Positions 2,422-30,237 are shown, numbered from the stretch's first letter. The stretch: 64,000 bases of DNA from Clostridia bacterium (GCA_012840485.1 DULG01000088.1:12047-76046); one strand, 5' to 3'. Notes: generated from the letters alone by a model not told the origin. Numbers and translations: made by a program.

Positions 2422-2660
2422 CCAGACTCACTCCTTAAAATATATGTTTTCACTAATTTCAAAATTTATCATTTATATCTTTCCAGCATCATCAATAAGA
2501 GTTAAGAGAAACAATTAATATTAAAATTACGATATTGATTGTTATATATTATTAGCCTTTAGCTACAATAAGCCCAATCCCCTATATCTATTGATGGTAT
2601 ATAACCCATTCAAGAAAACTTTTTCTCTGAAACTTTCTTAAACCCAGACAATATTTCTCT

Positions 2661-3305: not shown

Positions 3306-3330
3306 TCAACCCCTTTTAATATTTTCTTTT

Positions 3331-3402
3331 CCAAAATATTTCTATCCTCATTATACCATTATTTCGTCCATCTGATATTACAAATTGGTTACAAATTATT
3401 AA
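3331..3402 (-). promoter_or_regulatory. Duplicated promoter, copy 1: TGTAAC-N5-TGTAAT direct repeat (3377-3393) plus extended -10 TGGTATAAT
   Basis: Near-identical to 4324-4394; matches the WalR/OmpR-type TGTWAH-N5-TGTWAH consensus. Confidence 0.7.
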
Positions 3403-4313: not shown

Positions 4314-4323
4314 ATTTACACCT

Positions 4324-4394
4324 CCAAAATATTCCTATCCTCATTATACCATTATTTCGTCATCTGATATTACAAATTGGTTACAAATTATTAA
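4324..4394 (-). promoter_or_regulatory. Duplicated promoter, copy 2: TGTAAC-N5-TGTAAT (4369-4385) plus extended -10
   Basis: Direct repeat of 3331-3402. Confidence 0.7.
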
Positions 4395-4515
4395 ATTTTT
4401 ATTAATACAATTTCCATAAAACGGAATTAATTATGTGTTATTTGAAAATTGCACTCCTTTGTGCTATTCTAAAGAAGTAAACTTTATCTTTTTTCTCCTA
4501 AGGGGTGGCTTTTTA

Positions 4516-5463
4516 ATGGAAGTCTTTTTTTCATCAGTCCAAGGAGTTTTAATAATTGTATTCATACTGGCTCTGGGATACTATTTATCTAAGATAGGCT
4601 GGTTTGACAGTTTTACAGCAGACCTTTTTGCAAAGCTTGTAATTAATGTATCTTTACCTCTTAATATGATCGTAAACATTTATACAACTTTTTCTAAAGA
4701 ACAATTAGAACATTCAGTAAGAGGGCTTTTGATTCCATTTTTATCTATCCTTCTGTCATATACGATCGCTTATATATTTGCTAGCATTTTTAAAGTAAAA
4801 AAAGGAAGAAAAGGCATTTTTGTCCTTATATTCTCCCTTTCAAACACTATTTTTGTTGGACTTCCTATGGCTCAAGCTCTTTTTGGAGATATATCAACTC
4901 CCTATGCCCTTTTATACTACATGGCAAATACAACAATACTTTGGACTCTGGGCGTTTATGGTGTAATACGGGATGTAAATGAAAAAGAAAAAAATGTAGT
5001 AAATTGGGATACTGTAAAGAGAATATTAAATCCTCCTCTTTTAGGATTTATAATAGGAGTAATTTTTGTGCTTATAAACCTTTCCCTTCCAAAATTTCTC
5101 TTTGAAAGCTTTAGAATGATTGGAAATCTCACTACTCCTTTATCAATATTCTACATTGGCATAGTCATTCATGAAATGGGCTTTGATAAATTTAAACTTG
5201 ACAAAGATGCTATTCTGGTTTTCATTGGAAGATTTTTAATAACTCCTGCTCTTCTATTGCTTCTAAACATATTCATCCCTGTGCCAAAGCTCATGAGAGA
5301 CGTATTTGTCATAATGTCAGCAATGCCTGTACTTGTAAATTCTTCAATAATAGCAAGAATCTACGGCGCAGATTATGAATTTGCCACAAGTATGATTACA
5401 TATACAACAATATTAAGTGTAATTATAATGCCATTTTACATGGTGCTACTAAGAACGATTTAG
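4516..5463 (+). CDS. AEC (auxin efflux carrier / malate permease) family transporter
   Basis: About 10 TM segments; SNTIFVGLP and MSAMP..VNSSIIA motifs; likely start is ATG 4516 after AGGGG. Confidence 0.85.
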   Translation: MEVFFSSVQGVLIIVFILALGYYLSKIGWFDSFTADLFAKLVINVSLPLNMIVNIYTTFSKEQLEHSVRGLLIPFLSILLSYTIAYIFASIFKVKKGRKGIFVLIFSLSNTIFVGLPMAQALFGDISTPYALLYYMANTTILWTLGVYGVIRDVNEKEKNVVNWDTVKRILNPPLLGFIIGVIFVLINLSLPKFLFESFRMIGNLTTPLSIFYIGIVIHEMGFDKFKLDKDAILVFIGRFLITPALLLLLNIFIPVPKLMRDVFVIMSAMPVLVNSSIIARIYGADYEFATSMITYTTILSVIIMPFYMVLLRTI

Positions 5464-5478
5464 CACTTTATTTTCAAT

Positions 5479-5712
5479 CTATGTGAGAATATCCTTATAA
5501 ACCTCTTCTTTCCCGATCTCATTTAATAGTTCATGCCTTTTTTCTGGATAAAGCTTCGTATCAACCCGTTTTAATCCCATGCTCTTATAAAGCTCATACA
5601 ACCTCCTTACCAATTTACCGTATTCACCGACAGGGTCTTCTTCTCCTGAAATAATAAATAAAGGTAAATCCTTCGGTATTTTAACTAACCTCTGAGGCTT
5701 AAATATATTTAA
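5479..5712 (-). pseudogene. C-terminal remnant of an alpha/beta hydrolase (lysophospholipase-like)
   Basis: Manual translation: IPKDLPLFIISGEEDPVGEYGK, frameshift, then LYELYKSMGLKRVDTKLYPEKRHELLNE; catalytic Asp and His motifs present, N-terminus absent. Confidence 0.8.
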
Positions 5713-5810
5713 AAGCCCTCTAAAGAAATAATAAAAAAATCCCGCTGTAAAGACGCCGCCACGTCTATACCTAAAACTCTTTCGTCAATATTCACTGCTA
5801 TCCCTTCTTT

Positions 5811-6719
5811 TTATACCAATTCTACTTCTTGCACTTTTCTGTATCTTTCAAAATAATAATACAGTATTAAAAAAGTAATTAAAATAACAAGAGTAGCAAT
5901 TATTCCACCCTCCAACCCAAAATCTCCTCCGGAGAGTAATTTATCTTTCGGGAAAGCGTTGTAAAGGCCTCTTGTAGCATTGCCACTCACATTAAACCCA
6001 AATATGTAACCTTGAAAATAATTCCACGATATGTGATATCCAATTGGCATCCATAAATTCCTTGTCTTTAGATACATATAGGAAAACAAAACACCTATGA
6101 GAAAAATATTTAAAAGCCCAAGGAAAACTATATTAGGATTTAGAATATGCATAAGTGAAAAAATAATGGAAGAAATCAAAACAGAAAGCCAGGGCTTACC
6201 CATCTGGTTTAATGCACTTATGAAATACCCTCTGCTCATAAGCTCTTCTTCCAAACCCACAAGAATAAAAGCATACATGCCCCACAGCAAGTAGTAAGCA
6301 TTTATGCTGCTATTTTTCTCTATCTTTACAGTTCCTGCAACATATAGTATCAAAACAATTATTGCAATGGAAAAAGCTCCAATTAAAAAACCAACTATTA
6401 AGTTTTTATAACCATCTTTTAGAGAAGTAAAGCCTATGTCTTTAAACTTTTTTCTGTCTATAAATTTTAGCATCAAAGCTATCATAATTAAAGTAGACAA
6501 GAAACTTATAGTACTAAAAAGATAAAACCTCTCTTCTCCCACCATCAATAAAAGGTAAAGTTTCTGCGCCGTATACTTTAAATAACCACCTATCAAGCCG
6601 ATTATAAAAAAAGCCAAAAATGAAAGTAGCAATGTGATGACAAAAGTTCCTGCTATCAAAATAGCAATTTTCCAGCCAGAGCGGATTTGCCCATTTTTGT
6701 TTACAAATATTTTCTTCAA
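5811..6719 (-). CDS. CPBP (CAAX/Abi) family intramembrane metalloprotease
   Basis: EELMSRG, FSLMH and HISWN motifs in a multi-TM protein. Confidence 0.9.
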   Translation of the reverse strand: MKKIFVNKNGQIRSGWKIAILIAGTFVITLLLSFLAFFIIGLIGGYLKYTAQKLYLLLMVGEERFYLFSTISFLSTLIMIALMLKFIDRKKFKDIGFTSLKDGYKNLIVGFLIGAFSIAIIVLILYVAGTVKIEKNSSINAYYLLWGMYAFILVGLEEELMSRGYFISALNQMGKPWLSVLISSIIFSLMHILNPNIVFLGLLNIFLIGVLFSYMYLKTRNLWMPIGYHISWNYFQGYIFGFNVSGNATRGLYNAFPKDKLLSGGDFGLEGGIIATLVILITFLILYYYFERYRKVQEVELV

Positions 6720-6842
6720 GGTAATCCCTCCAATATTTTATTGAACTTTCCCAATGATAGAAAAAGAACAACCTATTACCATAATATACAAACTTAAACC
6801 AAAACTCAAGTAAAACTTATTCATCACACAAAAGTAAAGAGC

Positions 6843-15258: not shown

Positions 15259-15304
15259 ATTGTAAATTGTGTTAAATATAAAAACTACTATACTTTTGTA
15301 TAGA
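15259..15304 (-). promoter_or_regulatory. Promoter with 18-bp operator ACTATACTTTTGTATAGA (15287-15304) abutting the -35, 17-bp spacer, -10 TACAAT (15259-15264)
   Basis: Same motif and spacing as at 19010 and 29352. Confidence 0.65.
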
Positions 15305-15334: not shown

Positions 15335-17002
15335 TTATTCAATTTGATAATACCTCCTATTCCCAAAATAAATCAAAAATTTATAAAAAGCAAAAGTAAT
15401 TATTCCTAATCCAATAGCAATATAAGGCATGTAGATTGCAAGCTTTGATATTCTGGTTACCACATTAATTGACAAAATCACAAATAAAATCAATAAAACC
15501 ATAGATATGAGTACATTGATATTTTGCCTCACCACCACCCTTGGATTCTCCCAATTTAACATGGGTATACAAAATTCACAAAACAATCCTATGATAAAAT
15601 AAATGTTCAATATAAAAAAACCTATCATAAAAGCAAGTACAAGATAAATCAGGCTCAATCCTGTTACAAAAAAACTAAATGAACACGTAAGTATGCCAAA
15701 TATAATGCTTAAAATATTACAATGTAGAAGTTTCGCTTTAATGTATTCTTGAGGATTTATAGGCAATGATTTTAGATAATAAAACATCTTCCCTTCTCGT
15801 GATAAAGCAGTTGATGCTATCATATTAAAACCACCGACTAAAACATATCCTAAAGCTATAAGCAGTGTAATAAAATATTTTGCATTTAAATCTTTTTCTA
15901 TATCAGAAACTACTTTTAGTAAATCTGGCATACCTGAATAAAGAGAATAAAGCGAAAGAAAGGGAATAATTAACGTCATAGCGAATCCATAAATAACAAA
16001 TGTCGAATCACGATAAAAAAGTTTTATGTCTCTCTGTAGCAATGCCATAACCTCACTCTGACGTTTAAAGAGCAACCCTTCCATATTATAAACTTTTTGT
16101 TTATTCTTGTTACTTATCTCTTCGCTGCGGGATATTACATCAACTAAACTGCTTGATAATAACTTTAAAATGAGAATAAGACCTATTAATGAAATGAAAA
16201 TGAAGATTAATAAATATTTAAAAGAAATTATCACTTTTTCTGTAATAGCCTTATAAGCAATATTTACTGGATAAAATATTTTTGAAAAATCTACTAACAG
16301 GGAAAGCTTTTCTTTTATAATACTTACACCTGTATTTTTATTTGCTTCAAAATAATTCTGCATCCCTGTAATTTCTTTAAGTAAAATTATAAAGACAATG
16401 TTTATTATAAAAGCAGTTATATTAGCGAACCCTCTCTTATCAAAAAAATATCCTGCTCTTTGTATTAAAACAAAAACAAAAAATTGCAATGCCATTGGAA
16501 TTACAGGTATTAGCACTATAACTACACAAGCAAAAACATAATATGTAAAAGGTTCATTGAAAGTTATACCATTAATAATCAATACTGGCATAAGTGCAAA
16601 TAGTGAAAGCAATAATTGAAATATATATCCTGGAACAAATCTGCTGAGCAAAATTTGCCATGGTTTTAGTGGTAAAGTCATTACGTAACTATTTTCTCTA
16701 CTATTGCTTACTGTTGAAATGTATGAACCCGCTAAGCCAAACGTTAGTAATAAAAGAAATGTAAAATTTAAAAGCCCCTCTATCATCAAATTTTGTTCCC
16801 TAGTTAACGTTAAATTGTAATAGAGAAATTTGTTAATCTGTATATACGCCTTGAATATATTATAAAATAATAATAAAAGTAACCCATATATGAAAAAGTT
16901 TAAATACAGTTTTTCTTTTTCATACTTCCATGAATACTTAAATCCATGAAATCCATATAAGGACTTATAATTATATTTTATTAAAGTCCATAATTGCTTC
17001 AT
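15335..17002 (-). CDS. ABC exporter permease (large, multi-TM)
   Basis: 555 aa; TLPLKP, ALSREGK and SLPINP motifs typical of ABC-2-like permeases. Confidence 0.8.
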   Translation of the reverse strand: MKQLWTLIKYNYKSLYGFHGFKYSWKYEKEKLYLNFFIYGLLLLLFYNIFKAYIQINKFLYYNLTLTREQNLMIEGLLNFTFLLLLTFGLAGSYISTVSNSRENSYVMTLPLKPWQILLSRFVPGYIFQLLLSLFALMPVLIINGITFNEPFTYYVFACVVIVLIPVIPMALQFFVFVLIQRAGYFFDKRGFANITAFIINIVFIILLKEITGMQNYFEANKNTGVSIIKEKLSLLVDFSKIFYPVNIAYKAITEKVIISFKYLLIFIFISLIGLILILKLLSSSLVDVISRSEEISNKNKQKVYNMEGLLFKRQSEVMALLQRDIKLFYRDSTFVIYGFAMTLIIPFLSLYSLYSGMPDLLKVVSDIEKDLNAKYFITLLIALGYVLVGGFNMIASTALSREGKMFYYLKSLPINPQEYIKAKLLHCNILSIIFGILTCSFSFFVTGLSLIYLVLAFMIGFFILNIYFIIGLFCEFCIPMLNWENPRVVVRQNINVLISMVLLILFVILSINVVTRISKLAIYMPYIAIGLGIITFAFYKFLIYFGNRRYYQIE

Positions 17003-17028
17003 GATCCAGTCATCTCCAGAAAAATTTC

Positions 17029-17724
17029 TTATAAATCCTTTTTGTCATCTTTTTTAATTTTTAACTCATTAATAGTCCCCGTATAAAGTATCCTGCCATT
17101 TTTTATAATTGCGATTCTATCGCATATCTCCTCTGCTATCTGCATAATGTGTGTTGTGATAAATACTGTTTTACCTTGCTGGGCTAAACTCCGCATAATC
17201 TCTTTTAAATTTTTGATTGCTTTTGTATCCAGCCCAATCACTGGTTCGTCCATAATTAAAAGCTCCGGTTCATGAATAAGTACTCCTAAAATCAATAATT
17301 TTTGTTTCATTCCATGCGAATAGCTCTCTATTTTCATATTTAAAGCATCATAAATCTCCAGTATTTTACCATATTTTTCAATGTTTGATTTTCTAATTTT
17401 GCTATCTATTTTATATATATCTGATATAAACCTTAAAAACTCTAATCCTGTAAGTTTACTAAATATATCTGGGTTATCTGGTACATATCCAATTTTTTCT
17501 TTTGCTTTAAGAGGTTCTTTAATTACGTCATATCCATTAATTAAAACTTTTCCGCTATCGGGTTTTAATATACCAGTAATAATTTTTACAGTTGTTGTTT
17601 TCCCAGAACCATTTGGACCAAGAAAACCAAAAATTTCACCTTTATGTACTTCAAGGTTTAATGAATCTACAGCCTTTTTATCGCATCCATAGTATGTCTT
17701 TGATACATTTTCTAAAATAAGCAT
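17029..17724 (-). CDS. ABC ATP-binding protein, probably truncated by 10 aa by a premature TAA
   Basis: GPNGSGKTT, YSHGMKQK, IMDEP; reading past the stop gives in-frame EIFLEMTGS then TGA overlapping the next ATG. Confidence 0.85.
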   Translation of the reverse strand: MLILENVSKTYYGCDKKAVDSLNLEVHKGEIFGFLGPNGSGKTTTVKIITGILKPDSGKVLINGYDVIKEPLKAKEKIGYVPDNPDIFSKLTGLEFLRFISDIYKIDSKIRKSNIEKYGKILEIYDALNMKIESYSHGMKQKLLILGVLIHEPELLIMDEPVIGLDTKAIKNLKEIMRSLAQQGKTVFITTHIMQIAEEICDRIAIIKNGRILYTGTINELKIKKDDKKDL

Positions 17725-17742
17725 AAATAGTGCAGCTCCTTA

Positions 17743-18063
17743 TTAGAAAATTTTTAAATTTATTAAGATGATTACTATATCAACAATTAATACAAATAGA
17801 TTACCAAATATAGAATATAAGTCAGTATAAAGAGTTGTGTTTTTCCCTTTAGTTTTGAGTTTCACATACCCATAAACAAATAATTGCATCAAGGGAATAA
17901 TAAAAACAAATATTGTTTTAGAGACAGTATTTGAAATACTCCCATCAAAGTGCCACTGAATAGCAACTGTCTGTGGCAATGCTTTATAAAAAATGATGTT
18001 TATGATAAATGTGAAAACAGCAAATAACCAATTATTTTTACCAAAAAAATTTATTGCTCTCAT
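17743..18063 (-). CDS. DUF1648-domain membrane protein
   Basis: ALPQTVAIQWHFDGS motif; paralogous to 14902-15234. Confidence 0.75.
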   Translation of the reverse strand: MRAINFFGKNNWLFAVFTFIINIIFYKALPQTVAIQWHFDGSISNTVSKTIFVFIIPLMQLFVYGYVKLKTKGKNTTLYTDLYSIFGNLFVLIVDIVIILINLKIF

Positions 18064-18099
18064 AAAATTTTTCTCCCTTCTTATATTACGTTTTTCTTT

Positions 18100-18960
18100 T
18101 CATTTAACTTTTTTCTTTTCATACAACAAGCTAAATATAAGAACTACAAATATCATTAGAATTATCGTTATAAATATAACAAAATTTGATGCATGTATTT
18201 TATATATGTTGTAATATAATGTATCAAATATCACTAATTCGAAAAGGGAATATATAAGTATTAAAAGTACTGGTAAAAATTTACTTACCATAATCTGCGA
18301 TATGCAATAATACGGCAGAAAAATCCCAATCCATCCCAATATCAATATAATTTCATCTACCACTATTGCTATAGTTTTCTCAACAACCCACTCATCCGGG
18401 TTTCCCGTCAATCCAAAGTGAATATACACCTGGGGTGGTAATTTGACATATAAAATTAAATTAATTACTGTAGATATAGCAAAAATTAACACCGACAAAT
18501 AGATAACATATTTTTTTTCAGTTTTAATGGCATTTTTTGAATTTATATGATTTAAATCTCCTACTTCTTCTACTTTATAACTTCTATTACTATTATAACC
18601 TCGCCTTACCCCATTTTCATCAAATATTTTGTGCAAATGTTTTTCTGTAAGATAAATTATAGATATAAATAAAGGAATTATATAAATACCAAAGGATATT
18701 CCCATTATAGCTGAAGATACATTAAAAATGAACATTATTACATTAATTACAAATAACAATATTGAAAACAAAATGAATAAATCGGCAGAGTATCTATTTG
18801 CTTCTTTGAAAACATCTTCATTTTTTGTAGCAAATTCAGTTCTATAACCATAAAAATAATTTATTTTTTTAGGAGGAAAATATTTTAATACCACCCCTAT
18901 TAATAAAAAGAATAACGGAACACCAAAAGTAAGGAATAATCTACCTATAAAGTCTTCCAT
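18100..18960 (-). CDS. SdpI/YfhL-family immunity protein fused to a DUF1648 domain
   Basis: PPKKINYFYGYRT..A....F.EANRY (SdpI motif) plus LPPQVYIHFGLTGNPD (DUF1648). Confidence 0.8.
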   Translation of the reverse strand: MEDFIGRLFLTFGVPLFFLLIGVVLKYFPPKKINYFYGYRTEFATKNEDVFKEANRYSADLFILFSILLFVINVIMFIFNVSSAIMGISFGIYIIPLFISIIYLTEKHLHKIFDENGVRRGYNSNRSYKVEEVGDLNHINSKNAIKTEKKYVIYLSVLIFAISTVINLILYVKLPPQVYIHFGLTGNPDEWVVEKTIAIVVDEIILILGWIGIFLPYYCISQIMVSKFLPVLLILIYSLFELVIFDTLYYNIYKIHASNFVIFITIILMIFVVLIFSLLYEKKKVK

Positions 18961-18981: not shown

Positions 18982-19027
18982 ATTGTAGTACTTATTTCCT
19001 ATAAAGTCTACTATACTTTTGTATAGT
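18982..19027 (-). promoter_or_regulatory. Promoter with perfect operator ACTATACTTTTGTATAGT (19010-19027), -35 TAGACT, 17-bp spacer, -10 TACAAT
   Basis: Read directly; upstream of the SdpI gene RBS GGAGGTGA. Confidence 0.7.
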
Positions 19028-19059: not shown

Positions 19060-19838
19060 TTACTCCTTATCTATTAAACCTAATTTAACAGCTTTTGCTA
19101 TAGCTTCTTGTATTTTTTGTAAGCTTTTCCATTATTTTCTTTTTGTGATATTTAACTGTAATGGGTTTAATTTTAAGAAATTTCGCGATAACTATTTCTT
19201 TATATCCCTTAGCTTGCAATTGCAATATTTCTATTGGTTTCCCTTTTAAATCCATTTTTATTTTTTCAATTTCTTTTTCCTTCATTTTCTCTTCGTATTC
19301 ATTTATAATTTTTTCAGACAGCAGTTTTATTACAATAGTCATCTCATCTGCAATTTTTTTATCAATTGTTGATATATCCAAATATCCTATTATCTTTTCT
19401 CCGTTTGTTGCTAATGGCATTGCTATACAATACCATTTTCTAAAAATATCCCAGTAATGCTCCTGTGGTTTTAAACAAACTGCTCTTTTTAATCTCATTG
19501 CCATTGAAATTGCATTTGTACCGCAGCTTTCTTCTTTAAAGGATATCCCCAATCGAAAGCCAGACTGCCTTATGTATTCTTCTTCCTTTATATTACATTT
19601 TACATCTATTAAATATCTTTCTTCATCAGTCAGTAAAAAAAGATATTGTCTTTCTGCCTAATCATTTTCTATACTTCTATTAAAAGCATCTATGAGTACC
19701 TTGTTCTGTGCTATTTTTAATCCTAAATCCCTCTAGATTTAGAATTATTAGTGGTGTAGTTATTGAAGGGTCAATACCCATTTCAGTACAACGTTTATAA
19801 GAAGAAAGCCATTCCCCTTGCGGACATAAAAAATCCAT
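19060..19838 (-). pseudogene. GAF (AcoR-like) plus LuxR-HTH regulator, frameshifted near both ends; paralog of 29440-30237
   Basis: MDFLCPQGEWLSSYKRCTEMGIDPSITTPL start, early frameshift and stops, GISFKEESCGTNAISMAMRLKR core, second frameshift before QEAIAKAVKLGLID*. Confidence 0.85.
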
Positions 19839-20057: not shown

Positions 20058-20129
20058 ATCGAGTAGAGAGCCACTTTACAGCGGCTCCCTCTCACAGAAC
20101 CGGACGTGCGCTATTAACGCATCCGGCTC
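20058..20129 (-). mobile_element. Group II intron 3' remnant (domains V and VI only)
   Basis: GAGCCGGATGCG-TTAATA-GCGCACGTCCGGTTC (DV with AGC triad), then a DVI stem with bulged A ending CTACTCGAT; no RT ORF and no 5' domains. Confidence 0.85.
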
Positions 20130-20173
20130 TTCATATCATCTTTTACTTTTATCGTAGCTATGACACAAACAGG

Positions 20174-20224
20174 GGGGACGGTTCCTTTTGTCCGAAAAAA
20201 ATTCAGACAGAAGGAACCGTCCCC
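20174..20224. repeat. REP-like hairpin GGGGACGGTTCCTTTTGTC ... GACAGAAGGAACCGTCCCC
   Basis: 19-bp near-perfect inverted repeat; family members at 8255, 38461, 39914, 47247, 49319. Confidence 0.85.
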
Positions 20225-20279
20225 TTTGTCTGATTATATTTTTTCTTGCCTCTTCCCCTATTGTCTAAAGTACTCAAAG

Positions 20280-21473
20280 TCACAGCTCTTTTTCTAATCC
20301 TATTGCCCTTTTAAAAGGTATACTGGAAATTAAAGCTGTAATTAAAGATAAGAAAAGTGCAGCATAAAGACCCTTTTTGTCACTTAAGACTCCAAAGGAG
20401 TAAATACATAGAATTGTAGAAACACTAATAAACAAACTATATATTGAAATAATCGTTGCACGCTCTGAAGAAGGTATTAACTTATTAAAATAAGACATAA
20501 AAATCGGAGTGTGTGCAGAATATACTGCTGTATAAATAATATAAGGTATAAACGAATACTTGGGAATCGCATACATCATAAATATAAACAATGCAGATGT
20601 AATACTGACAATCATTAGTGTGCGAGCTGCCCCTTTAAATCTTTCAGCTATCCTGTCAGCATAACGGGGCACAAAAATACTAAGTACCATCGTTAATGCT
20701 AAAATAATACCAAACAATTCTACAGGTATGCCTGCCCGTTCGAAATAGGGCTGCCACAACATTGACATGATTCCCGATGAAAAGAAAAAGAAAAAAGCTC
20801 CAATTGTAATAAATAATAAAATCTCATGTTTAAATAGATACACAGTTCCTTTAGCAATTTTATTAAAATACTCTCTGTAACTGTATTCGTCCGTTTTTTT
20901 CTCTAATTTAGCTTCTTTGCCCGCTAAAAATACGTAAATAAAAACCAAAAAAATCCCTATACCTTCTATTAGCCAGATTTCTCTAAAGATATTATAACGT
21001 ACTAAAACGCTGCCTCCTAAAAATCCTATCGTACTACCTAAATAGTTAAAACTTGTAAGACGTCCCCAGTATTTTGTCAGGTCTATTTCTTTTTGACCCA
21101 AAAGAAACGAATCAGCAAACCAAGATTCAAAGGCTCCAGAATTAAGAGTTGCTCCAACTCCTGATAAGAAATATAAAAATAATAAAACTGTAAAAGAGGT
21201 GTTGAAATATATCCCAATAGAAGTTAAACTGCCAATCAATAAAGATAAAAGAACAGAAAATTTACGGCTATATGTATCAGCAAAAGCACCCGTAGGTATT
21301 TCGAATAATATGACCGCTATGTGGTTTATTATTATGAGGAGTGAAATTTGTGAAAAATCTAAATTAATTTTATTAAAATATATTACCCAAAATGGTGCCA
21401 TTAAAGATGTAAAAAAACTTGAAAACAATGTTACCGTCAAGAAAAATCGTACATTCCTTTTTAAATTTTGCAT
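20280..21473 (-). CDS. MFS transporter (probable exporter)
   Basis: 12-TM pattern; FEIPTGAFADTYSRK motif A and SGAFESW. Confidence 0.88.
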   Translation of the reverse strand: MQNLKRNVRFFLTVTLFSSFFTSLMAPFWVIYFNKINLDFSQISLLIIINHIAVILFEIPTGAFADTYSRKFSVLLSLLIGSLTSIGIYFNTSFTVLLFLYFLSGVGATLNSGAFESWFADSFLLGQKEIDLTKYWGRLTSFNYLGSTIGFLGGSVLVRYNIFREIWLIEGIGIFLVFIYVFLAGKEAKLEKKTDEYSYREYFNKIAKGTVYLFKHEILLFITIGAFFFFFSSGIMSMLWQPYFERAGIPVELFGIILALTMVLSIFVPRYADRIAERFKGAARTLMIVSITSALFIFMMYAIPKYSFIPYIIYTAVYSAHTPIFMSYFNKLIPSSERATIISIYSLFISVSTILCIYSFGVLSDKKGLYAALFLSLITALISSIPFKRAIGLEKEL

Positions 21474-22459
21474 TTATTTAAATCCTCCTCTGAAGGAATA
21501 AATTTACCAAATGTTAGGAAGTTTTCAGCAATACAATAATTCGTAGAACAGAAGCGAGCAAATTCACATTTGGTACACAGAAATTTTTTGCTTAATCTTT
21601 TGGAATAACTTCTTATCCTTTTTGCTTTCTCACTATTCCATATTTCAAAAATATCTTGTGATTTTATGTTGCCTAGAATTATTTTATCATCTACTCTTTG
21701 CTCGAAAATCCGGCATGGAAGTACATTCCCATCAGGTTGAATTTCAAAACCGACGTTTATATTGCAACCTGGAACCTTTTGGTCTTCAATAGACTTGGGT
21801 ACATCTCCCATTATTTGGTACAATGTTTGACAATTGTTGCCCCCAATCCCAAGGTTTCAAGCGTGCAAATTTAACTGAAGTAACTCCCAAATCGCTTAAC
21901 AATTTTACAATTTCTTCTATTTGCATCATATTATGTTTTCCGTAAGTTACTTCAACTTCCACTTGAAATGCATTTGAAAATTTTTTCAAATTTGAAATTG
22001 AAGAAAAAACCTTTTTAAATGTCCCCTCTCCCCTGATAAAATCATGAGTCTCGCTATTACTTCCTTCTATTGATAAACTATAACTTACTACGTGATAAGA
22101 ATTCATTATCTCAATCTTTTCTTTCGATAAATTTATACCATTAGTAACTAGTTCAATAGGGATTTTGTGTTGATTAAATATTTCCATAATTTTAAAAAAA
22201 TCCTTTCTAACTGTTGGTTCGCCACCATTAAAATCTCGTATTTCTCCATTTGTTCAGCCAATTTTTTTATATCATCTAATTCTAATTCTTTTATTTGGTA
22301 ATGTCTTAAACTCCCAACCAAACAGTGTTTACATTTTAAATTACATTTATAAGTTAATAGTAGTGATAATACTAACGGTGATTCGAATTCATAAATGTGG
22401 TCAATACTATAGTTTGTATTATTTCCTTCTCTGTTCTCTCCAATAATTATTTTCTGCAA
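21461..22459 (-). pseudogene. Radical SAM/SPASM enzyme (PqqE/MftC-like architecture) split by two frameshifts
   Basis: CNLKCKHC in the first piece; GGEPTVRKD in the shifted frame; VTNG; SPASM C..C..CTKCEFARFCSTNYC in the last piece. Confidence 0.85.
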
Positions 22460-22553
22460 TGGCTTACTAATTGCGCTGCTTATGGAATTCTCGAGATATT
22501 TTTTATTAATTTATACCATATATATTCCCACAAAATCTTATCATATCTAATTC

Positions 22554-23324
22554 TCAATACTCATTCCATATCCCTTCAACTTTACTTTTATTGTAAATAT
22601 ATCTAAAAAAGGATATACCAATGATAAAATATAAAAAGCTATTTATGCATAACAAAAACATCTGACTGAAAAATACAGGCTGCTTGTCAATTAAACTCTG
22701 TGAAATTAATATGCCCTGTGTTAAAGGCAAACTTTTGCTAATAATTTGAAATAAGATTGGCATGGAATTAATATCAATTATCGTCCCCGTAAAAAATAAT
22801 AAAATGTAAGATAAAATAGTCTCAAAAGAAGCCGTTTTAGTAAATCTTAAAGTCAGTCCTCCTAATAATAAACTAAAGCCCAATAGTCCTATTAACGTAA
22901 TTATTAAAATGGGTATTATTTTTATATTAAAAACTATATTTATGGGTAAGGTTAATTTGATAACTATAAATAATACCATAACTTTGATAAAAGTAATTGC
23001 AAGCCATGTTAGTGTTTTTATTAAACATATTACTTCTAAAGATACAGGCTTTAGAAGCAACTGTTCTAATGTACCTACTTGTTTTTCAAAGGATATCGAT
23101 ACAGATACCTCACTTATTATGTTAGCCGCGAGAAACCAATATAAAAAGCCAATGTAATAACTGTCTTTTACAGCAGCATAATTTCTAAATTCCAAAAAGA
23201 ATCCTGCAAAAAATATATAAGTTACAATCATATTTACTATATGATCGGGGTAATAAGTTTTTACTTCGATCATATACTTAGATAATTCCGCTTTTATAAT
23301 ATTAAACATCTTCAAAGCTGTCAC
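22554..23324 (-). CDS. ABC-2 type permease
   Basis: FEKQVGTLEQLLLKP motif, 6 TM, LPLTQGI. Confidence 0.85.
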   Translation of the reverse strand: MTALKMFNIIKAELSKYMIEVKTYYPDHIVNMIVTYIFFAGFFLEFRNYAAVKDSYYIGFLYWFLAANIISEVSVSISFEKQVGTLEQLLLKPVSLEVICLIKTLTWLAITFIKVMVLFIVIKLTLPINIVFNIKIIPILIITLIGLLGFSLLLGGLTLRFTKTASFETILSYILLFFTGTIIDINSMPILFQIISKSLPLTQGILISQSLIDKQPVFFSQMFLLCINSFLYFIIGISFFRYIYNKSKVEGIWNEY

Positions 23325-24261
23325 TTCCTAACTTCAAAAATTTGTACATTATATCTTCAAGGCTATCTTGGCTTTTAGAAATATGAGTAACATAAATATT
23401 TCTTTTTACCATATCACCTAAAAAGCTATTTATAAGCCTATTACTATCAATATAAACTTCTATTTCAGTAATATCATTTTCCCTGCGCACCACATTAACT
23501 GTATCAAAATACTTTTTTATTTCTGCATCATCTAAATTTCTTTCCACTCTTATTAAATATTTATTGCCTGAATATTTATTTATCAACTTATCTACTGTAT
23601 CCAAAAATTGTATTTTCCCTTCACCTAATATCATCACTCTATCAGCTACTTTTTCAACGACATCCATTTGATGTGACGTAATAATAACTGTCACACCCTC
23701 CTCCTTTGACAAATGTTTTATTTTTTCAATCATGTCCATTTTAGACACCACATCAAGCCCTAAAGTTGGCTCATCTAAAAACAATATCTTTGGTTCATGG
23801 AGTAATGAGATTATAATTGATAATTTTTGCTGCATCCCTCTTGAAAAATTCCCTACTTTTTTATCTTTATCCTCATATAGCCCAAAAAATTTTAATAATT
23901 CCTCTCCTCTTTCTCTAATTTCTTTTTCTTTTAACCCCATCAATCTTCCGAAATAAAGTATATTTTCATAAGCCGACAAATACCAATAAATATTTCTATT
24001 ACCTTCTAACACAACTCCGATTTCAGTGTAGTAATCCTTTCCTATAGTTGTAATTTCCATATTTTTATATAAAATTTTCCCTTTTGAAGGAGTTAATAAA
24101 TTAACCATCAATTTTATCAATGTAGTTTTACCTGCGCCATTTTCTCCTAATATGCTGAAAATTTCTCCTTTATCAACATGAAAACTTACTGAATCTAAAA
24201 CCAATTGCTTTTTTCTATTTGTCTTATATGTTTTGGATAGCTCTTTTATTTCTAATATCAT
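23302..24261 (-). CDS. ABC transporter ATP-binding protein
   Basis: GENGAGKTT, FSRGMQQK, FLDEPT and C-terminal SLEDIMY. Confidence 0.92.
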   Translation of the reverse strand: MILEIKELSKTYKTNRKKQLVLDSVSFHVDKGEIFSILGENGAGKTTLIKLMVNLLTPSKGKILYKNMEITTIGKDYYTEIGVVLEGNRNIYWYLSAYENILYFGRLMGLKEKEIRERGEELLKFFGLYEDKDKKVGNFSRGMQQKLSIIISLLHEPKILFLDEPTLGLDVVSKMDMIEKIKHLSKEEGVTVIITSHQMDVVEKVADRVMILGEGKIQFLDTVDKLINKYSGNKYLIRVERNLDDAEIKKYFDTVNVVRRENDITEIEVYIDSNRLINSFLGDMVKRNIYVTHISKSQDSLEDIMYKFLKLGSDSFEDV

Positions 24262-24482
24262 ACTAATCTTTTTTCCTCCATTCTGTTTGGAGCTTTAACA
24301 TAAGTATAGCAAAAATAACAGTAATATTACTTTATAATAAATAATATTATGACAAAACCAAAAAGTAATATCACAGAATTTAATTACTTTAACAAGCAGA
24401 TATTGATTTTAAGCTACTACAGGTAGAATTTGGTATGTTGTTATATTTGAGTCTAACTTCCTTGAAAACTCTCAACTACCAT

Positions 24483-25757
24483 TTATTTATTTCCCTTGGC
24501 ACTATTTTTATAGTTCTCTACAATTAATGGAATATCATTTTCATCCAATTCTTGTTTAGGACATATATTACCGTAAACATTCTTTTTATATACACACCAT
24601 CCTCCGCAAATAATTTTATAATCACAATCAGTACATTCAGAATTCATATTTTCTTTTTCTATAAATTGACTAACTCTGGAATAATAATAATGGCTTCCAT
24701 ATTCAGATATATGTGAAATTAAGTATTGTGTATTACCAATTCCAGATATACACTTATAGAGATATCCATCCGGACTAATTATAAATACGTTGTCCCTAAA
24801 AAAACTACATGTAAAATAACTATTTCTGTAGAAAGGCACATAATTATTTCCATACTTTAAACCTATTTTATGTGCATTTAACCAAGCTTTATTTATGTCG
24901 TTTTTATAAGCATATTTAAAAGAATTCTTTCTAGACTCAAATACTATACTAAAAAACACGGGATAATTTATTCTTTTTTTTCTTAATTCTATAAACAATT
25001 CTTCAATATGATTTATATTCAACAAATTAATGTTGCAGTTTATTACAATATTGATTGATTCATTAAACTCCTTAGAAATAGCTTCTAGATTATTTATTAT
25101 CTTATTGTAACTTCCACTGTTGTCCATTCCAATTCTCAACTGATCATGGATTTTTTGTGGTCCATCTAATGTTACTTGTAGCAAATCTATTTTCATATTT
25201 ATGAGTTCATTAACTGTTTTTTTGTTAAGTAAAGTCCCATTCGTAATAATCGATTTGATAATTTTGAGAGATTTTCCTTCATTCGATATTCCATTAATAA
25301 TATTTTTAATTTTTCTCTTATGTAACAAAGGTTCTCCTCCAATAAAACATAGTTCAATTTGCTCTGGACTTGTCTTTTTAACAATTCCTTTAATAAATTT
25401 AATTACATCTTTTTCTGTTTCCTCAGTCATAACCTTTTTACTTTTTATTTCCCTTTGATAACAATAAACACATCTTAAATTACAGTTGTAATTTAAATGA
25501 ATTATGAAAGAAACTGAACGACTCGAATACTTAATTTTATTCATAACCATTTTAACAAGTTTTTCTTCATCTATTTCGCTAAATTGTAAATATAATTCTT
25601 TCCTTAAATATTGTAATTCTTCTTGGTTCAATTTTTTAATAAATATTTCTACATCTTCTTTAGAAGTAGGTAAAGATATTAAAGAATTAGTAATTGAATT
25701 ATACAAAAGAGTTTTTTTATCATCTACAGGTATTTTAATTACATATTTGCTTAACAA
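24483..25757 (-). CDS. Radical SAM/SPASM peptide maturase with an N-terminal extension (probable RRE)
   Basis: CNLRCVYC, GGEPLL, TNG, QVTLDG; SPASM Cys set C..C..CTDCDYKIICGGWC..C; about 90-aa N-terminal extension. Confidence 0.9.
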   Translation of the reverse strand: MLSKYVIKIPVDDKKTLLYNSITNSLISLPTSKEDVEIFIKKLNQEELQYLRKELYLQFSEIDEEKLVKMVMNKIKYSSRSVSFIIHLNYNCNLRCVYCYQREIKSKKVMTEETEKDVIKFIKGIVKKTSPEQIELCFIGGEPLLHKRKIKNIINGISNEGKSLKIIKSIITNGTLLNKKTVNELINMKIDLLQVTLDGPQKIHDQLRIGMDNSGSYNKIINNLEAISKEFNESINIVINCNINLLNINHIEELFIELRKKRINYPVFFSIVFESRKNSFKYAYKNDINKAWLNAHKIGLKYGNNYVPFYRNSYFTCSFFRDNVFIISPDGYLYKCISGIGNTQYLISHISEYGSHYYYSRVSQFIEKENMNSECTDCDYKIICGGWCVYKKNVYGNICPKQELDENDIPLIVENYKNSAKGNK

Positions 25758-25785
25758 GATTTTTTACCTCCTATTCTTGATTATT

Positions 25786-27072
25786 TTATGTACAGAGTTG
25801 AATTATACCTTCAACTATTCCATTTTGGATTTCTTCTTTTTTGCAGAGAACTTTATTAATATCATATTTGTTCTCTATTTTTTCTCTTTTACACCCCCCC
25901 ATACAAAAAGGTAAAAATGTACACGTCTTACATCTTTCTTCATATTCTATTTCATCTTCATCATAACTATACAACTTTAATAGAATCATGTCTGTATCAT
26001 CCTTAATGTTTCCTATAATAAATTTATCACTACCGATTCCGTATATACACTTACTTATATTCCCGTTGGGTTCTATTATAATCGAATTCTTTCTATTAGC
26101 TAAACAAGGTCCATATCCTATAAATTCATCATTCTCTTTGTTATAACCATATATTTTCAAACTCTTTAATAAAGTTTTATATATTATAGCTAATTCATCA
26201 GGTTTTAGTTTATGCACTCTCGAAATATTATTTTCAGTACTTATCAAAGAATTAAACTTTATATAAACTTTGTTTCTGTATTTTTTAGGAAATATATCTA
26301 AAAATTTAATTATACTTCTGTAATTATATTTATCAAAATTCATATTGATTACAATCTCAAACCCATTATCTATTAACATCAAAAGATTATTATATATCTT
26401 TTTAAACGTTCCAGAGCCATCATGTAAAAATCTTCTTTCGTCATGGCATCTTTCAATTCCATCAATAGTTATCTGAAAACTGTTAATATTTAATTTTTTG
26501 AAGTTTTCAATCATCTTTTCATCAATTAAATATCCATTAGTCACTATGTTAACCAGACTTCTAATTCCAAAATTATTTTCTATGTAACATAAAAACATAC
26601 AAACTTTTTCTATTGTCTTCATTTCTAGCAATGGTTCCCCGCCAAAAAAGTTAAAATCTATAACACGACACCTACTTTTAATAATAACATTCTCTAAAAA
26701 TTGCAGCATTTTGTCTAGTTCCATGTTTTTATAATTTTTTTCTTTTTTAAAACCTTCATAACAATATGGACATTTAAAATTACAATTGTATGTCGTTAAA
26801 AATGTTACAATAAAATATTCATTTTGCCATTTTTGCTTATTTAACCAATACTTATACAATAAAAATTCATCTATATCATCATCCACTATAAACCCTAATT
26901 CACATAAATCTTTATATTTTTTTTTGGCAGTATGATAATTTATTTTTTTTATATTTTCTTTAAGCTGGTAGTATTCTCCTCTTTCTATAGAGATAATTGA
27001 TCTCGTTAATGTATTAAAAATTATAACGTTATTATCTAAAGTCTTCTCATAATTAAAAACCGAAAATTTCAT
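25786..27072 (-). CDS. Radical SAM/SPASM peptide maturase with an N-terminal extension (probable RRE)
   Basis: CNFKCPYC, GGEPLL, TNG, QITIDG; SPASM C..C..CKTCTFLPFCMGGC..C; AGGAGG RBS. Confidence 0.9.
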   Translation of the reverse strand: MKFSVFNYEKTLDNNVIIFNTLTRSIISIERGEYYQLKENIKKINYHTAKKKYKDLCELGFIVDDDIDEFLLYKYWLNKQKWQNEYFIVTFLTTYNCNFKCPYCYEGFKKEKNYKNMELDKMLQFLENVIIKSRCRVIDFNFFGGEPLLEMKTIEKVCMFLCYIENNFGIRSLVNIVTNGYLIDEKMIENFKKLNINSFQITIDGIERCHDERRFLHDGSGTFKKIYNNLLMLIDNGFEIVINMNFDKYNYRSIIKFLDIFPKKYRNKVYIKFNSLISTENNISRVHKLKPDELAIIYKTLLKSLKIYGYNKENDEFIGYGPCLANRKNSIIIEPNGNISKCIYGIGSDKFIIGNIKDDTDMILLKLYSYDEDEIEYEERCKTCTFLPFCMGGCKREKIENKYDINKVLCKKEEIQNGIVEGIIQLCT

Positions 27073-27261
27073 ATTTAATTTTCTCCTCCTATGTTATCTT
27101 CTATTTTCTCTCATTATTTAGCTTTTTTAATTTTTCTATCATAATAAGGTAGATATCATTAAAGAATATACCAGGTATTTCTATTATCATTTTATTCACT
27201 GGATCTCTGCCTTTAATTCTTTTTTTATCTGCTATTATGCTCTTTAAATTATAATGTAAAC

Positions 27262-27798
27262 TTATTTTAACTTTTTCAAAATTTGTATAAAATCTAGTAC
27301 GTTTTCAACTTTAATTATTCTATCATCATCTATTACTAAATCTGTCAATTTAGGCACTAAAAAATAATCATACTGTCTTTCTTTAAAAATACTAAACTTT
27401 TCTTTCATCCCACCAACTTCTAAAACATTTCCGTATAAATCTATTTCACCAGTTGCTAAAATATTTTTACCTTCTACATATTTCCGCATGTTCTCATCCA
27501 AACAACTATACATAACAGACATAAAAATTCCTAACCCTGCAGAAGTTCCATCTTTATAAATACTCCCATTAGTAAAATGTACATGAAAATCGAATTCATT
27601 AATTATTTTTTTATCTATTTTTAACAAAATATAGTTGCTTTTTATTACTGAAAGTGCAACTTGTACCATTTCCGCAATTGCATTACCTACAACTCCTGTA
27701 ACCAAGCAGTTACCGTTGCCATTCTCAAACCTCATACATTGCACCGAAAAACAATCAACAATACCTTCATTATTTATGGCAGGTACATCTATTCTCAT
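27262..27798 (-). CDS. Stand-alone Lon protease proteolytic (S16) domain, no AAA+ module
   Basis: HVHFTNGSIYKDGTSAG (catalytic Ser) and TGEIDLYGNVLEVGGMKEK (catalytic Lys) align to E. coli Lon PKDGPSAG / TGEITLRG..IGGLKEK; GAGGAG RBS. Confidence 0.88.
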   Translation of the reverse strand: MRIDVPAINNEGIVDCFSVQCMRFENGNGNCLVTGVVGNAIAEMVQVALSVIKSNYILLKIDKKIINEFDFHVHFTNGSIYKDGTSAGLGIFMSVMYSCLDENMRKYVEGKNILATGEIDLYGNVLEVGGMKEKFSIFKERQYDYFLVPKLTDLVIDDDRIIKVENVLDFIQILKKLK

Positions 27799-28043
27799 TT
27801 TTCTCCTCTCCCATTAGTATAAACAATAAATTGGAAATAAGTAATTAATAAAAAATATGATTACTTTCTTATTTTTCTTATTTTCCCTTTACATATATTT
27901 CGTTTTATTAATGTGATATAGTATAGTACAGTTAAAATTTGGAGATATTTCTTTAATCAATATATTTTTACATATTTTTTGTGCCGCTATTCTTATTTCG
28001 TTTTGAAAATCCCTGTTGAAATCAATATTTCTTTATATTTACA

Positions 28044-28089
28044 AGCATAGCATAATAAGTATTGTCTACAGTACTTATTATGCTATGCT
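28044..28089 (-). terminator. 18-bp perfect stem-loop downstream of the precursor peptide gene (terminator or mRNA-stabilising hairpin)
   Basis: AGCATAGCATAATAAGTA (28044-28061) / TACTTATTATGCTATGCT (28072-28089). Confidence 0.75.
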
Positions 28090-28101
28090 ATTTAATGAAT
28101 T

Positions 28102-28233
28102 TTAATCAATAGTTAAACGCTGTGTTTTTCTGCAACATGAATAAATCAAATCAGCATTTTCGATCTTGTGTCCAGTTCTAATAACTTTAACTTTTTTTAA
28201 TTCATTAGATTGCTTCTCCTGTTTTTGAGTCAT
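28102..28233 (-). CDS. Putative RiPP precursor peptide, 43 aa: MTQKQEKQSNELKKVKVIRTGHKIENADLIYSCCRKTQRLTID
   Basis: Manual translation (below the ORF-track cutoff); strong AGGAGGTG RBS 6 nt before ATG; first gene of the rSAM operon; followed by a strong hairpin. Confidence 0.8.
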   Translation of the reverse strand: MTQKQEKQSNELKKVKVIRTGHKIENADLIYSCCRKTQRLTID

Positions 28234-28388
28234 CGCTTACACCTCCTTCTTTTTTAAATATTTGGTCTTTGCAGAATCCTAAAATCCTTATGTATTGAAA
28301 GATTCTGCTGTATATTTTCAAAGGAATTCCTCCACTTTTTTTGAATTTATAGAAAGAGACAAATCCCCAAAAAAAGGGAGGAACTCCT

Positions 28389-28835
28389 ATGAAAACTGAA
28401 GCTAAATAAACACTATTTTTTGCCGATATTTACGATAATGTTTAAACCTTTTTCTGAAGAAGATAAATTTAAGTTTATTAAACTCTTTGATTACTTTATT
28501 GATTTTTCTAAACTTACTCCATCTTCTTTCTATAACCATTATTATTCTCAATTTGACGTCATAGAGATTTTTATCTTGAATCTATGCTTACTGCTTTGTT
28601 TATTCAAAAAATCCTTTCTATTTCTACTTTTCAACTCCGTGCTTATGTCTTTAAACTCTTTAAAGAATTAAGAGAACTTTATGGCTTTAAAAGAGTCCCT
28701 CATCCTTCCAATTCCCTAGATTTAAATCCATTTTCCTCAAAGATTTGGAGAATTTCTTCAATAATCTTGTTAATTTAACTGAATCTATTTGTCAGCCTAT
28801 TAATCCTTCACTTTCCAATATACTCTTGGTTTAAT
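28389..28835 (+). mobile_element. Degraded IS transposase, N-terminal part (ISNCY/IS1182-like; family uncertain)
   Basis: Stitched frames give MKTEAK*..SFYNHYYSQF..RDFYLESMLTALFIQKILSIST..KELRELYGFKRVPHPSQFPRFKSIFLKDLENFFNNLVNLTESIC; several stops and frameshifts; GCAGAATC/GATTCTGC inverted repeat near 28271-28308. Confidence 0.7.
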
Positions 28836-29323
28836 TATTATGCAGAACTTGGTGCCTTCGAATATCCTCTATTTTTGAAAAAGTTTTTGGCTTGGTAATT
28901 TGTTCTTATAGTTTGAATATACCTGACTTTCTATTTCCCAGTGTAAGATTGACTTTTATTTTTCTATGTTTAAGAATTTAGACTTGTTTTTAATACCGGA
29001 ATCTCTTTATGTTGCTATTGTAGTTGTTAAGCTAAGTAAATTTTGTAAGTTTAAGTTTTTTATTAATCTGATGCAATTGACTTAATTTTCACTAAATTTA
29101 GTTTGGGCCACTTTTCAATATTTGACTTTCAGAGGATATTTATGATTTTTTAGCTACTCTTTTGTCTTTTCTTATCCCTGACTATTTTCTTTGTGTTTAA
29201 TTGTCAGTTTTGATTATTATATATTTTATATCATACATACTTTGTTTTTTAATTCTGATTATTTTAATTTACTTTGCATAATCATAACATTTCTGACATT
29301 TCTGCACTTATTTTTTTATTTTC

Positions 29324-29369
29324 ACTATACAATGAAACTAATAGCATGTCTACTATATTTTAGTATAGT
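29324..29369 (-). promoter_or_regulatory. Promoter with operator ACTATATTTTAGTATAGT (29352-29369), -35 TAGACA, 17-bp spacer, -10 TATAGT, pointing to the RiPP cluster
   Basis: Same geometry as 19010 and 15287. Confidence 0.65.
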
Positions 29370-29413: not shown

Positions 29414-29431
29414 ACTATACAAAAGTATAGT
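29414..29431. promoter_or_regulatory. Perfect palindromic operator copy ACTATACAAAAGTATAGT
   Basis: Reverse complement of the 19010-19027 copy; 62 bp from the 29352 copy. Confidence 0.65.
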
Positions 29432-29439: not shown

Positions 29440-30237
29440 TTAATCCACATCTACCAGTCCCAACTTAATTGCCTTTATTACTGCCTCTTTAGTGTTTTTT
29501 ACTCCAAGTTTTTCTACTATCTTTCTTTTGTGATATTTCACAGTCACAACCCCTATCCCAAGAGCTTCTGCTATGTCTGATTCTCTGTATCCTTTTGCCT
29601 CTAATTCCAGTATTTTTATCTGGCTGTCATTTAATTTTATCTTTATCTCATTTATCTCTTTTTCTTTTACTATCTTTTCATATTCACTCGCTATTTTTTC
29701 AGCCAGCAGTTTTATTACCATTGATACTTCACTTGTGATTTTTTTGTCAATAGTTGATATATCCACATAGCCTACTATTTCCCCGTTTTCTACTATTATA
29801 GGTGAAGCAATGCAGTGCCATTTTTTAAATATGTAACAGTAGTGTTCCTGAGGTCTTACATACACTACCCTTTTTAATCTCATTGCCATTGAAATCGCAT
29901 TTGTCCCACAGCTTTCTTCTCTAAAGGATATTCCCCGTTCAAAGCCTGAATCTTTTATACATTTTTTCCCTTTTGTACTGCATTTTACATCCATCAAATA
30001 TCCTTCAATATCAGTAAGCAAAAATAGATACTCGCCTTTTACCCACTCCTCTTCTACACTCATATGAAAAGCTTCTATGAGTTCTTTATTTTTATGTACT
30101 TTCTTTTGCAAATCTTCTGGATTTAATATCACCAATGGCAGAGTTATTGAAGTGTCAATACCAATTTCTATACATTGTTTATATGAAAAACTTAGTTCTT
30201 CTTGCGGACATGAAAAATTCATTTTTATACCCTCCAA
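29440..30237 (-). CDS. Transcriptional regulator: AcoR-like GAF domain plus C-terminal LuxR HTH
   Basis: GISFREESCGTNAISMA, HYCYIFKKWHCIASPI (GAF); LNDSQIKILELEAKGYRESDIAEALGIGVVTVKYH..KIVEKLGVKN (LuxR HTH). Confidence 0.9.
   Translation of the reverse strand: MEGIKMNFSCPQEELSFSYKQCIEIGIDTSITLPLVILNPEDLQKKVHKNKELIEAFHMSVEEEWVKGEYLFLLTDIEGYLMDVKCSTKGKKCIKDSGFERGISFREESCGTNAISMAMRLKRVVYVRPQEHYCYIFKKWHCIASPIIVENGEIVGYVDISTIDKKITSEVSMVIKLLAEKIASEYEKIVKEKEINEIKIKLNDSQIKILELEAKGYRESDIAEALGIGVVTVKYHKRKIVEKLGVKNTKEAVIKAIKLGLVDVD

Follow-up and report, generated by a model that had tools for sequence, protein, structure and literature searches.

A candidate RiPP gene cluster pairing two divergent radical SAM/SPASM enzymes with a stand-alone Lon-type protease domain in a Clostridia bacterium

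Analysis of a 64,000-nucleotide stretch of DNA from a Clostridia bacterium (GCA_012840485.1 DULG01000088.1:12047-76046; hereafter the window, with positions counted from its first letter) indicated that six genes at 22554-28233 probably form an intact cluster for a peptide that is ribosomally synthesised and then modified post-translationally (RiPP), that the cluster belongs to a small family and that it probably works by the pathway proposed below. The conserved unit consists of these six genes: a precursor, a protease made of a Lon_C domain, two radical S-adenosylmethionine (rSAM)/SPASM enzymes, an ATP-binding cassette (ABC) ATPase and an ABC-2 type permease. All six are intact in the source genome. 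An earlier reading made from the sequence alone (the sequence-only reading) had proposed a RiPP cluster with two or three rSAM enzymes at this place; its RiPP interpretation is supported by the comparisons reported here. Two rSAM genes are conserved, as it had suggested, but the third is broken and lies outside the conserved unit.

Open reading frame (ORF) listing and Pfam/NCBIfam domain scans placed all the elements listed in that reading on the minus strand, and its AT-rich block was equally apparent: the GC fraction is 0.24-0.29 over 22-29 kb and 0.34-0.37 beyond 30 kb. An Rfam scan of the cluster gave no match above the gathering score within the core, the sole such match being a group II intron fragment outside it (see below).

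The precursor ORF (28102-28233, minus strand) encodes a peptide of 43 amino acids, MTQKQEKQSNELKKVKVIRTGHKIENADLIYSCCRKTQRLTID; a GGAGGTG ribosome-binding site precedes its ATG by 6 nt. No Pfam or NCBIfam model matched it, and the only source name found for its homologues was "hypothetical protein". The peptide carries a leader strand, KVKVIRTG, and a core, YSCCRKTQR, whose YSCCRK-x-Q part is Y31-S32-C33-C34-R35-K36-T37-Q38. Public data searched with a profile of seven precursors yielded 26 distinct peptides. In a core-anchored alignment the core reads Y-S-C-C-R-K-(T/S/K)-Q-(R/H/K) in 26/26 peptides, the leader strand has the form (I/V/M)-(K/T)-V-(I/L/V)-(K/R)-(K/R)-(G/P), and exactly nine residues separate the leader G/P from the core Tyr in every peptide, with no insertions or deletions; the core is followed by a tail of 1 to 11 residues. 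In contigs of species-representative genomes, six stretches matched the pattern YSCCRK[TS]Q[RH].

Comparison of ten loci showed that each invariant core residue is encoded by at least two synonymous codons. With such codon variation throughout, what is conserved is the protein and neither the DNA nor the RNA: the core is under purifying selection at the protein level. The small ORF is far beyond chance, and the precursor gene that the sequence-only reading had picked out is real.

A stem-loop immediately follows the precursor stop codon (28045-28088, minus strand). Its stem of 18+2 bp has a folding energy of -25.5 kcal/mol (z = -5.4), and 0/200 shuffled sequences folded as well, in agreement with the hairpin noted earlier at this place. 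No T-run was found 3' of the stem on the coding strand, and the hairpin is therefore probably not a full terminator but an attenuator or an element that stabilises the transcript.

The two rSAM/SPASM maturases recognised in the sequence-only reading were located on the minus strand at 25786-27072 (rSAM1, 428 aa) and 24483-25757 (rSAM2, 424 aa). Both matched Pfam Radical_SAM (7e-18 and 8e-16, respectively) and carry a CX3CX2C motif that is invariant across the family (C97/C101/C104 in rSAM1, C92/C96/C99 in rSAM2). Seven C-terminal SPASM cysteines are invariant in each of the two rSAM families, which is the signature of a SPASM domain with two auxiliary clusters; the SPASM model TIGR04085 scored 54 bits on rSAM1, against a cutoff of 27. 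The AlphaFold model of rSAM1 (pLDDT 88) begins with three strands and three helices (E7-12, E15-20, E25-30, H31-43, H51-58, H69-81), and the model of rSAM2 (pLDDT 74) shows the same order of elements in its N-domain. Both proteins are thus predicted to carry, before the barrel, an N-domain that resembles a RiPP recognition element (RRE). The CX3CX2C motif, the seven-Cys SPASM domain, the predicted RRE-like N-domain and a conserved short precursor gene nearby are together the features of an rSAM/SPASM RiPP maturase. The two enzymes are just 23-26% identical to each other and, for this reason, are taken to be an old pair and not the result of a recent duplication.

The closest solved structure by sequence was CteB for both enzymes (5wgg; 3e-15 and 4e-18). 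CteB was also the closest by fold in the search made with the rSAM1 model only (5why/5wgg, Foldseek 6.5e-18), followed by TigE, anaerobic sulfatase maturase, SuiB and ChlB. The best NCBIfam models were all of peptide maturases (CefB, TIGR04463, Clo7bot, geopeptide, FlmE/OhkG and PapB). Neither rSAM reached the cutoff of any NCBIfam family, the best score being that of CefB, with 196 and 192 bits against 600.

The third element of the cluster (27262-27798, minus strand) encodes a protein of 178 aa that matched Pfam Lon_C (2e-23), as expected from the Lon-type protease domain named in the sequence-only reading. The protein is a stand-alone proteolytic domain, without AAA+ or N domain, and aligns to the protease domain of E. 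coli Lon (1rr9). Its residues Ser86 and Lys134 align to the active-site positions of E. coli Lon and do not vary among eight family members; the Lon_C fold and the Ser-Lys dyad place it in peptidase family S16. No hydrophobic N-terminal segment was evident when the sequence was inspected by eye.

In every context found the Lon_C gene adjoins the precursor. A word-indexed search with the profile of this short Lon_C family returned seven proteins only. When 1.84 billion representative proteins were searched exhaustively, the profile recovered 22 proteins at E<=1e-30, mostly of 160-185 aa and aligned from residue 1, while below approximately 105 bits the matches were dominated by full-length Lon proteases. 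Two high-scoring relatives are longer, P0163 (565 aa) with three matched stretches and P0172 (710 aa) with two; these may be tandem Lon_C domains or merged gene calls. Viral contigs in IMG/VR contained generic Lon homologues only.

More distant rSAM loci were examined for the same association. Among 80 species-representative loci encoding rSAMs 25-33% identical to rSAM1, none had a Lon_C ORF within 8 kb, and the YSCCRK core motif was likewise found in 0/80. The absence of Lon_C from these loci indicates that its association is specific to the YSCCRK family. The next-nearest rSAM (P0018, 197 bits) stands alone and adjoins an ABC transporter with a C39 peptidase. We propose that the Lon_C protein is the leader peptidase.

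The remaining two genes of the unit encode an ABC transporter, as the earlier reading had claimed. The DrrA-like ATPase (23302-24261, minus strand) matched Pfam ABC_tran (1e-28) and scored 231 bits, below the cutoff, with the drrA model TIGR01188; it is kept in 9/11 contexts other than the window. The ABC-2 type permease (22554-23324, minus strand; Pfam ABC2_membrane, 9e-14) is 39-58% identical across the family.

A search of a 5.8-billion-protein collection with rSAM1 yielded graded homologues of 34-51% identity, and every neighbourhood that was read contained an ORF of 36-51 aa, then a Lon_C protein of 160-180 aa, then two rSAM genes. The order precursor-Lon_C-rSAM-rSAM-ABC-ABC-2 was observed in 9/11 independent contexts outside the window lineage, with protein identities of 31-58%; contexts with the six-gene order include L010/L011, L012-L014, L015, L017, a contig of GCA_016648615, L104/L105, L106/L107 and L111/L112. 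Context L016 has the first four genes together with a third rSAM, of another, SCIFF/nif11-like group, and a different transporter set, and the family member in context L009 is broken by insertion sequence (IS) elements. In all 11 independent contexts the rSAM pair was accompanied by a conserved small ORF, and the pair was not seen without one. The two rSAM genes always occur together, always adjacent and often overlapping.

Family members come from sources that include a metagenome-assembled genome of Lachnospiraceae and hydrocarbon and biogas metagenomes. One of them, L010, is an 8.3-kb contig with Rep3 and Mob_Pre genes and, on that account, is plasmid-like; a search of PLSDB plasmids recovered no member of the family, the closest rSAM there having 31% identity. 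Other members adjoin integrases, Thoeris-like and AbiE genes, toxin-antitoxin pairs and IS elements, and from these neighbours the module appears to be mobile.

No rSAM closer than approximately 32% identity was found among 40 relatives of the source genome, and in blastn against 12 relatives the only trace of the core was a 523-bp piece of the ABC genes in genome G008. The corresponding region of that genome (L110; G008:C1:360500-366500) contains scrambled pieces of the regulator, an rSAM3/MFS pair at 97-98% identity and the 523-bp ABC fragment at 98%; this scrambled remnant suggests that G008 lost the core cluster by deletion.

A core 99.3% identical to that of the window was found in metagenome contigs, whose flanks reach only 93-96% identity and follow another arrangement. 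All frames are open in both versions: nine synonymous and seven non-synonymous codon changes were counted in the four genes that agree in length, and rSAM2 differs by five substitutions and one in-frame codon. At least 24 contigs, drawn from several samples, carry the window precursor peptide, and identical contigs occur in biogas-fermenter metagenomes.

The 1.2-kb gap between the precursor and the upstream regulator consists of two repeats (approximately 28241-28825 and 29010-29278; remnant 28241-29278, plus strand), which are present in many copies, at 80-86% identity, in the source genome (G000) and its relatives. In genome G007 (L109) the same two repeats flank a transposase ORF of 425 aa with the N-terminal motif MFKNLDL, a motif that also starts the window ORF 28966-29085. 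Pfam gave no match on the short ORFs of the gap, the IS identity coming from the multiple blastn copies and from the intact copy in G007. Because the repeats flank a transposase gene in G007, the gap is read as an insertion sequence that has lost its interior and whose end lies at the precursor ribosome-binding site. It splits the precursor from the regulator, and the native promoter may therefore be lost in the window lineage.

The system works, as far as its gene content indicates, like a sactipeptide or ranthipeptide cluster, but falls below the curated cutoffs of every family tested. With CteB-thermocellin, PapB-freyrasin and SCIFF it shares RRE, rSAM and SPASM domains encoded beside a short Cys-containing precursor and an exporter. 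It differs from these systems in having two maturases per precursor, only two adjacent Cys, an S16 peptidase and an invariant eight-residue core in place of a variable Cys-rich one. The scores of the two rSAMs were 102 and 121 bits for PapB (NF047865; cutoff 340) and 74 and 82 bits for SCIFF (TIGR03974; cutoff 425). The best profiles, CefB (NF038107), TIGR04463, Clo7bot and geopeptide, cover nearly the full length of both enzymes, N-domain included; the precursor, however, lacks the every-fifth-Cys pattern of the CefB system, and none of the 80 loci of the broad CefB-type group has a Lon_C neighbour.

Thuricin CD resembles the cluster in its two adjacent rSAM/SPASM genes (TrnC/TrnD) and ABC transporter, but has two precursors with long hairpin cores, and no specific sequence relationship to it was found. 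The Lon_C protein shares its fold and Ser-Lys dyad with Lon and with SepM, an S16 enzyme that trims a secreted pheromone peptide; it differs from them in lacking an AAA+ module, N domain, PDZ domain and membrane anchor, and scored only 77 bits with the Lon model TIGR00763 (cutoff 608) and 24 bits with the SepM model NF041438 (cutoff 200).

We propose the following pathway. The 43-aa precursor would be translated from an mRNA that the hairpin probably keeps in excess of the enzyme mRNA. The leader strand (KVKVIRTG in the window) would be held by the RRE-like N-domain predicted from the models of one or both rSAMs, and the docked leader and the fixed spacing would place the core Y31-Q38 in the active site. 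There, the core would be modified by both of the divergent rSAMs, each by way of a 5'-deoxyadenosyl radical. By analogy, the likeliest result is one sulfur-to-carbon thioether from each of the two adjacent Cys to a neighbouring residue, although the type and positions of these cross-links are predicted; thioethers are favoured because the nearest structural and profile neighbours of the enzymes act on cysteines. The cytoplasmic Lon-type Ser-Lys protease would then remove the leader, at a presumed cleavage site, and the DrrAB-like ABC-2 transporter would export the short, strongly basic product, protect the producer, or both. The mobile and patchy distribution of the clusters suggests that the product is an antimicrobial or competition peptide.

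Some observations weigh against this pathway. The invariance of the two core Cys extends equally to Tyr, Ser, Arg, Lys and Gln, which exceeds what a model with two thioethers strictly needs. The cutoffs of the thioether families lie above the scores of both rSAMs, so that the thioether assignment comes from nearest neighbours only, and the rSAM2 model, with its pLDDT of 74, is only moderately confident. The IS remnant between the precursor and the upstream regulator is a further point of this kind. The same cluster might perform other chemistry, one rSAM or neither making a thioether while the other modifies the invariant Tyr, Arg, Lys or Gln or oxidises Cys; a carbon-carbon or carbon-oxygen cross-link, epimerisation and Cys oxidation are among the options. 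SPASM enzymes catalyse many kinds of cross-link, and such chemistry would fit the invariance of Y, S, R, K and Q, the low identity of rSAM1 and rSAM2 to each other and the matches of rSAM2 to the cyclophane-forming ChlB (6e-14) and YhhB (92 bits). These cyclophane matches are weaker, however, and span the generic rSAM core only, whereas the strongest neighbours of both enzymes (CteB, CefB, TIGR04463, whose targets are Cys-rich, and PapB) are Cys-directed; we regard other chemistry as having a real but minor chance. It is unlikely, in our estimate, that rSAM1 and rSAM2 form an obligate complex in which one enzyme supplies the essential radical chemistry, as TrnC and TrnD of thuricin CD do, where only one member of the complex has this role (PMC12093266). 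The constant adjacency, frequent overlap and invariable co-occurrence of the two genes would agree with such a complex; the retention of all ten cluster-binding Cys in both proteins, a predicted RRE-like domain in each and the presence of one precursor, not two, weigh against it.

The IS remnant directly upstream of the precursor ribosome-binding site, the broken rSAM3 and second regulator, the reduction of the cluster in G008 to its ABC fragment and the IS-broken member L009 could also mean that the cluster is silent or decaying in the source genome, the family being functional elsewhere. The six genes are nevertheless intact, the 99.3% copy is found in at least two genomic backgrounds with its frames preserved and the peptide recurs across contigs; synonymous and non-synonymous changes are roughly equal in number. 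Against this background decay or silence seems quite improbable. A pathway of another kind altogether, in which the rSAMs mature a protein or cofactor and the small ORF is incidental, has hardly any probability left. SPASM enzymes also serve cofactor pathways, and structures of anaerobic sulfatase maturases are among the fold matches. The sulfatase-maturase model (TIGR03942), however, scored 89 bits against a cutoff of 349, no sulfatase domain was found in the cluster or in related loci, and no sulfatase or cofactor-dependent enzyme was present among the matched domains in the cluster genes of any context; the small ORF itself is conserved in all 26 members under selection at the protein level. 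A RiPP pathway with two probably thioether-forming maturases and a proposed S16 leader peptidase remains the interpretation that we prefer.

Two further genes follow the conserved unit on the minus strand. The broken third rSAM/SPASM gene (rSAM3; 21461-22459), also seen in the sequence-only reading, is spread over three frames, and its pieces correspond to profile positions 8-62 and 81-194 and to the SPASM domain. Its best partial matches were ScmF, MftC and AhbD, and it lacks an N-terminal extension of RRE size, pointing to a different type of enzyme; it is broken or truncated in all close copies of the cluster. In variant copies the front part of rSAM3 has given way to a gene for a CPBP/Rce1-like intramembrane protease (L099:14979-15899, L100:8970-9665); proteases of this type are often associated with immunity to bacteriocins. 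Downstream of rSAM3 lies the exporter gene of the major facilitator superfamily (MFS) that had been listed earlier (20280-21473; Pfam MFS_1, 3e-29). This gene was seen in none of the other family contexts, and together with the SPASM remnant of rSAM3 it is 98% identical in the sister species G003, G007 and G008, all of which are without the core cluster. Both genes are lineage-specific additions, and the conserved unit was delimited at 22554-28233 for this reason.

Contig L099, a near-identical metagenome version, carries directly upstream of the core a second, different two-rSAM cluster (784-6727), with a 52-aa ORF, MKVKRQDEGVKTRIKKQDLDVKTWLDLTEEELKIISDVCNCMYGRKNTIGDG, two rSAMs (453 and 427 aa), an ABC ATPase and a pair of ABC2_membrane_6 permeases. 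No second two-rSAM cluster of the L099 type was found in the window.

A MimR_N and GerE (LuxR-type) regulator is encoded upstream of the cluster (29440-30237, minus strand) and is lineage-specific, being one of a multi-copy family in the genus. A broken paralogue at the other end of the block (19085-19838, minus strand) is 75% identical to the regulator region of contig L099. An 18-bp palindrome, ACTATAC-N4-GTATAGT, occurs in four copies (15287-15304, 19010-19027, 29352-29369 and 29414-29431), 0.01 being expected. Two copies lie just past the stop codon of the GerE regulator, approximately 1.1 kb upstream of the precursor with the IS remnant in between, and another separates the broken paralogue of the regulator from an SdpI-like gene; the palindrome may be an operator or a weak terminator.

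Further downstream (15335-18960, minus strand) are genes for two DUF1648 proteins, one of them of the SdpI/DUF1648 kind, for an ABC ATPase and for a large membrane protein of ABC_tran_2 type. These genes have 91% identity to those of sister species that are without the core and were not found beside other family members, and are therefore considered to lie outside the conserved unit. A match to the group II intron domain V/VI (RF00029; 50 bits, gathering score 40) just downstream of the MFS gene (20058-20131, minus strand), adjoined by a long hairpin at approximately 20156-20241, is probably an intron fragment.

The sequence-only reading had suggested a family from a thermophile. The family is not restricted to thermophiles, as shown by the Lachnospiraceae member, but for the source organism the suggestion agrees with the available proxies. 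The 16S rRNA is absent from the assembly, and amino-acid composition and tRNA GC were used instead: the IVYWREL fraction of 0.425 corresponds to approximately 63 C by the Zeldovich formula, which reportedly converts this fraction to temperature, and tRNA GC is 59% in a genome of 34% GC. Both suggest a moderate thermophile.

As the sequence-only reading had surmised, no known class was found for the precursor or for the gene combination among curated families or in the searchable literature. That literature omits most subscription journals and the 2022 atlas of rSAM RiPPs; within it the YSCCRK motif was in no paper, SCCRK gave irrelevant matches only, and nothing relevant was found linking Lon or S16 to radical SAM or RiPPs, or on OhkG/FlmE/CefB. 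A 2023 review of RiPP leader proteases makes no mention of Lon or S16 (PMC10885120). We therefore describe an rSAM-RiPP family that is well defined but uncharacterised and that stands out by its protease and its paired enzymes; a prior listing of it in a large network is possible. That it constitutes a new RiPP class, with an undescribed modification introduced by a dedicated rSAM pair and with the first S16 family of leader peptidases, is a tentative idea to which we give somewhat less than even weight; examples of such a modification would be two strained vicinal-Cys thioethers in a nine-residue basic core, or a thioether together with a Tyr, Arg, Lys or Gln link.

Peptides modified by rSAM enzymes are a main source of new peptide chemistry, and in this family one short precursor is always accompanied by two divergent maturases. 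The family is thereby a small, convenient system for the study of rSAM chemistry and a promising subject for experiments. The core has stayed invariant while the enzymes diverged to 33-49% identity, which argues for a tightly constrained and probably unusual structure. If the stand-alone Lon domain is the leader peptidase, it would enlarge the RiPP toolbox by one protease family and illustrate an ATP-independent use of the S16 fold, and the version from a probably thermophilic genome may yield robust enzymes for in vitro work. The mobile and patchy spread of the clusters, on a plasmid-like contig and beside defence genes and IS elements, suggests a role in competition or signalling in anaerobic communities.

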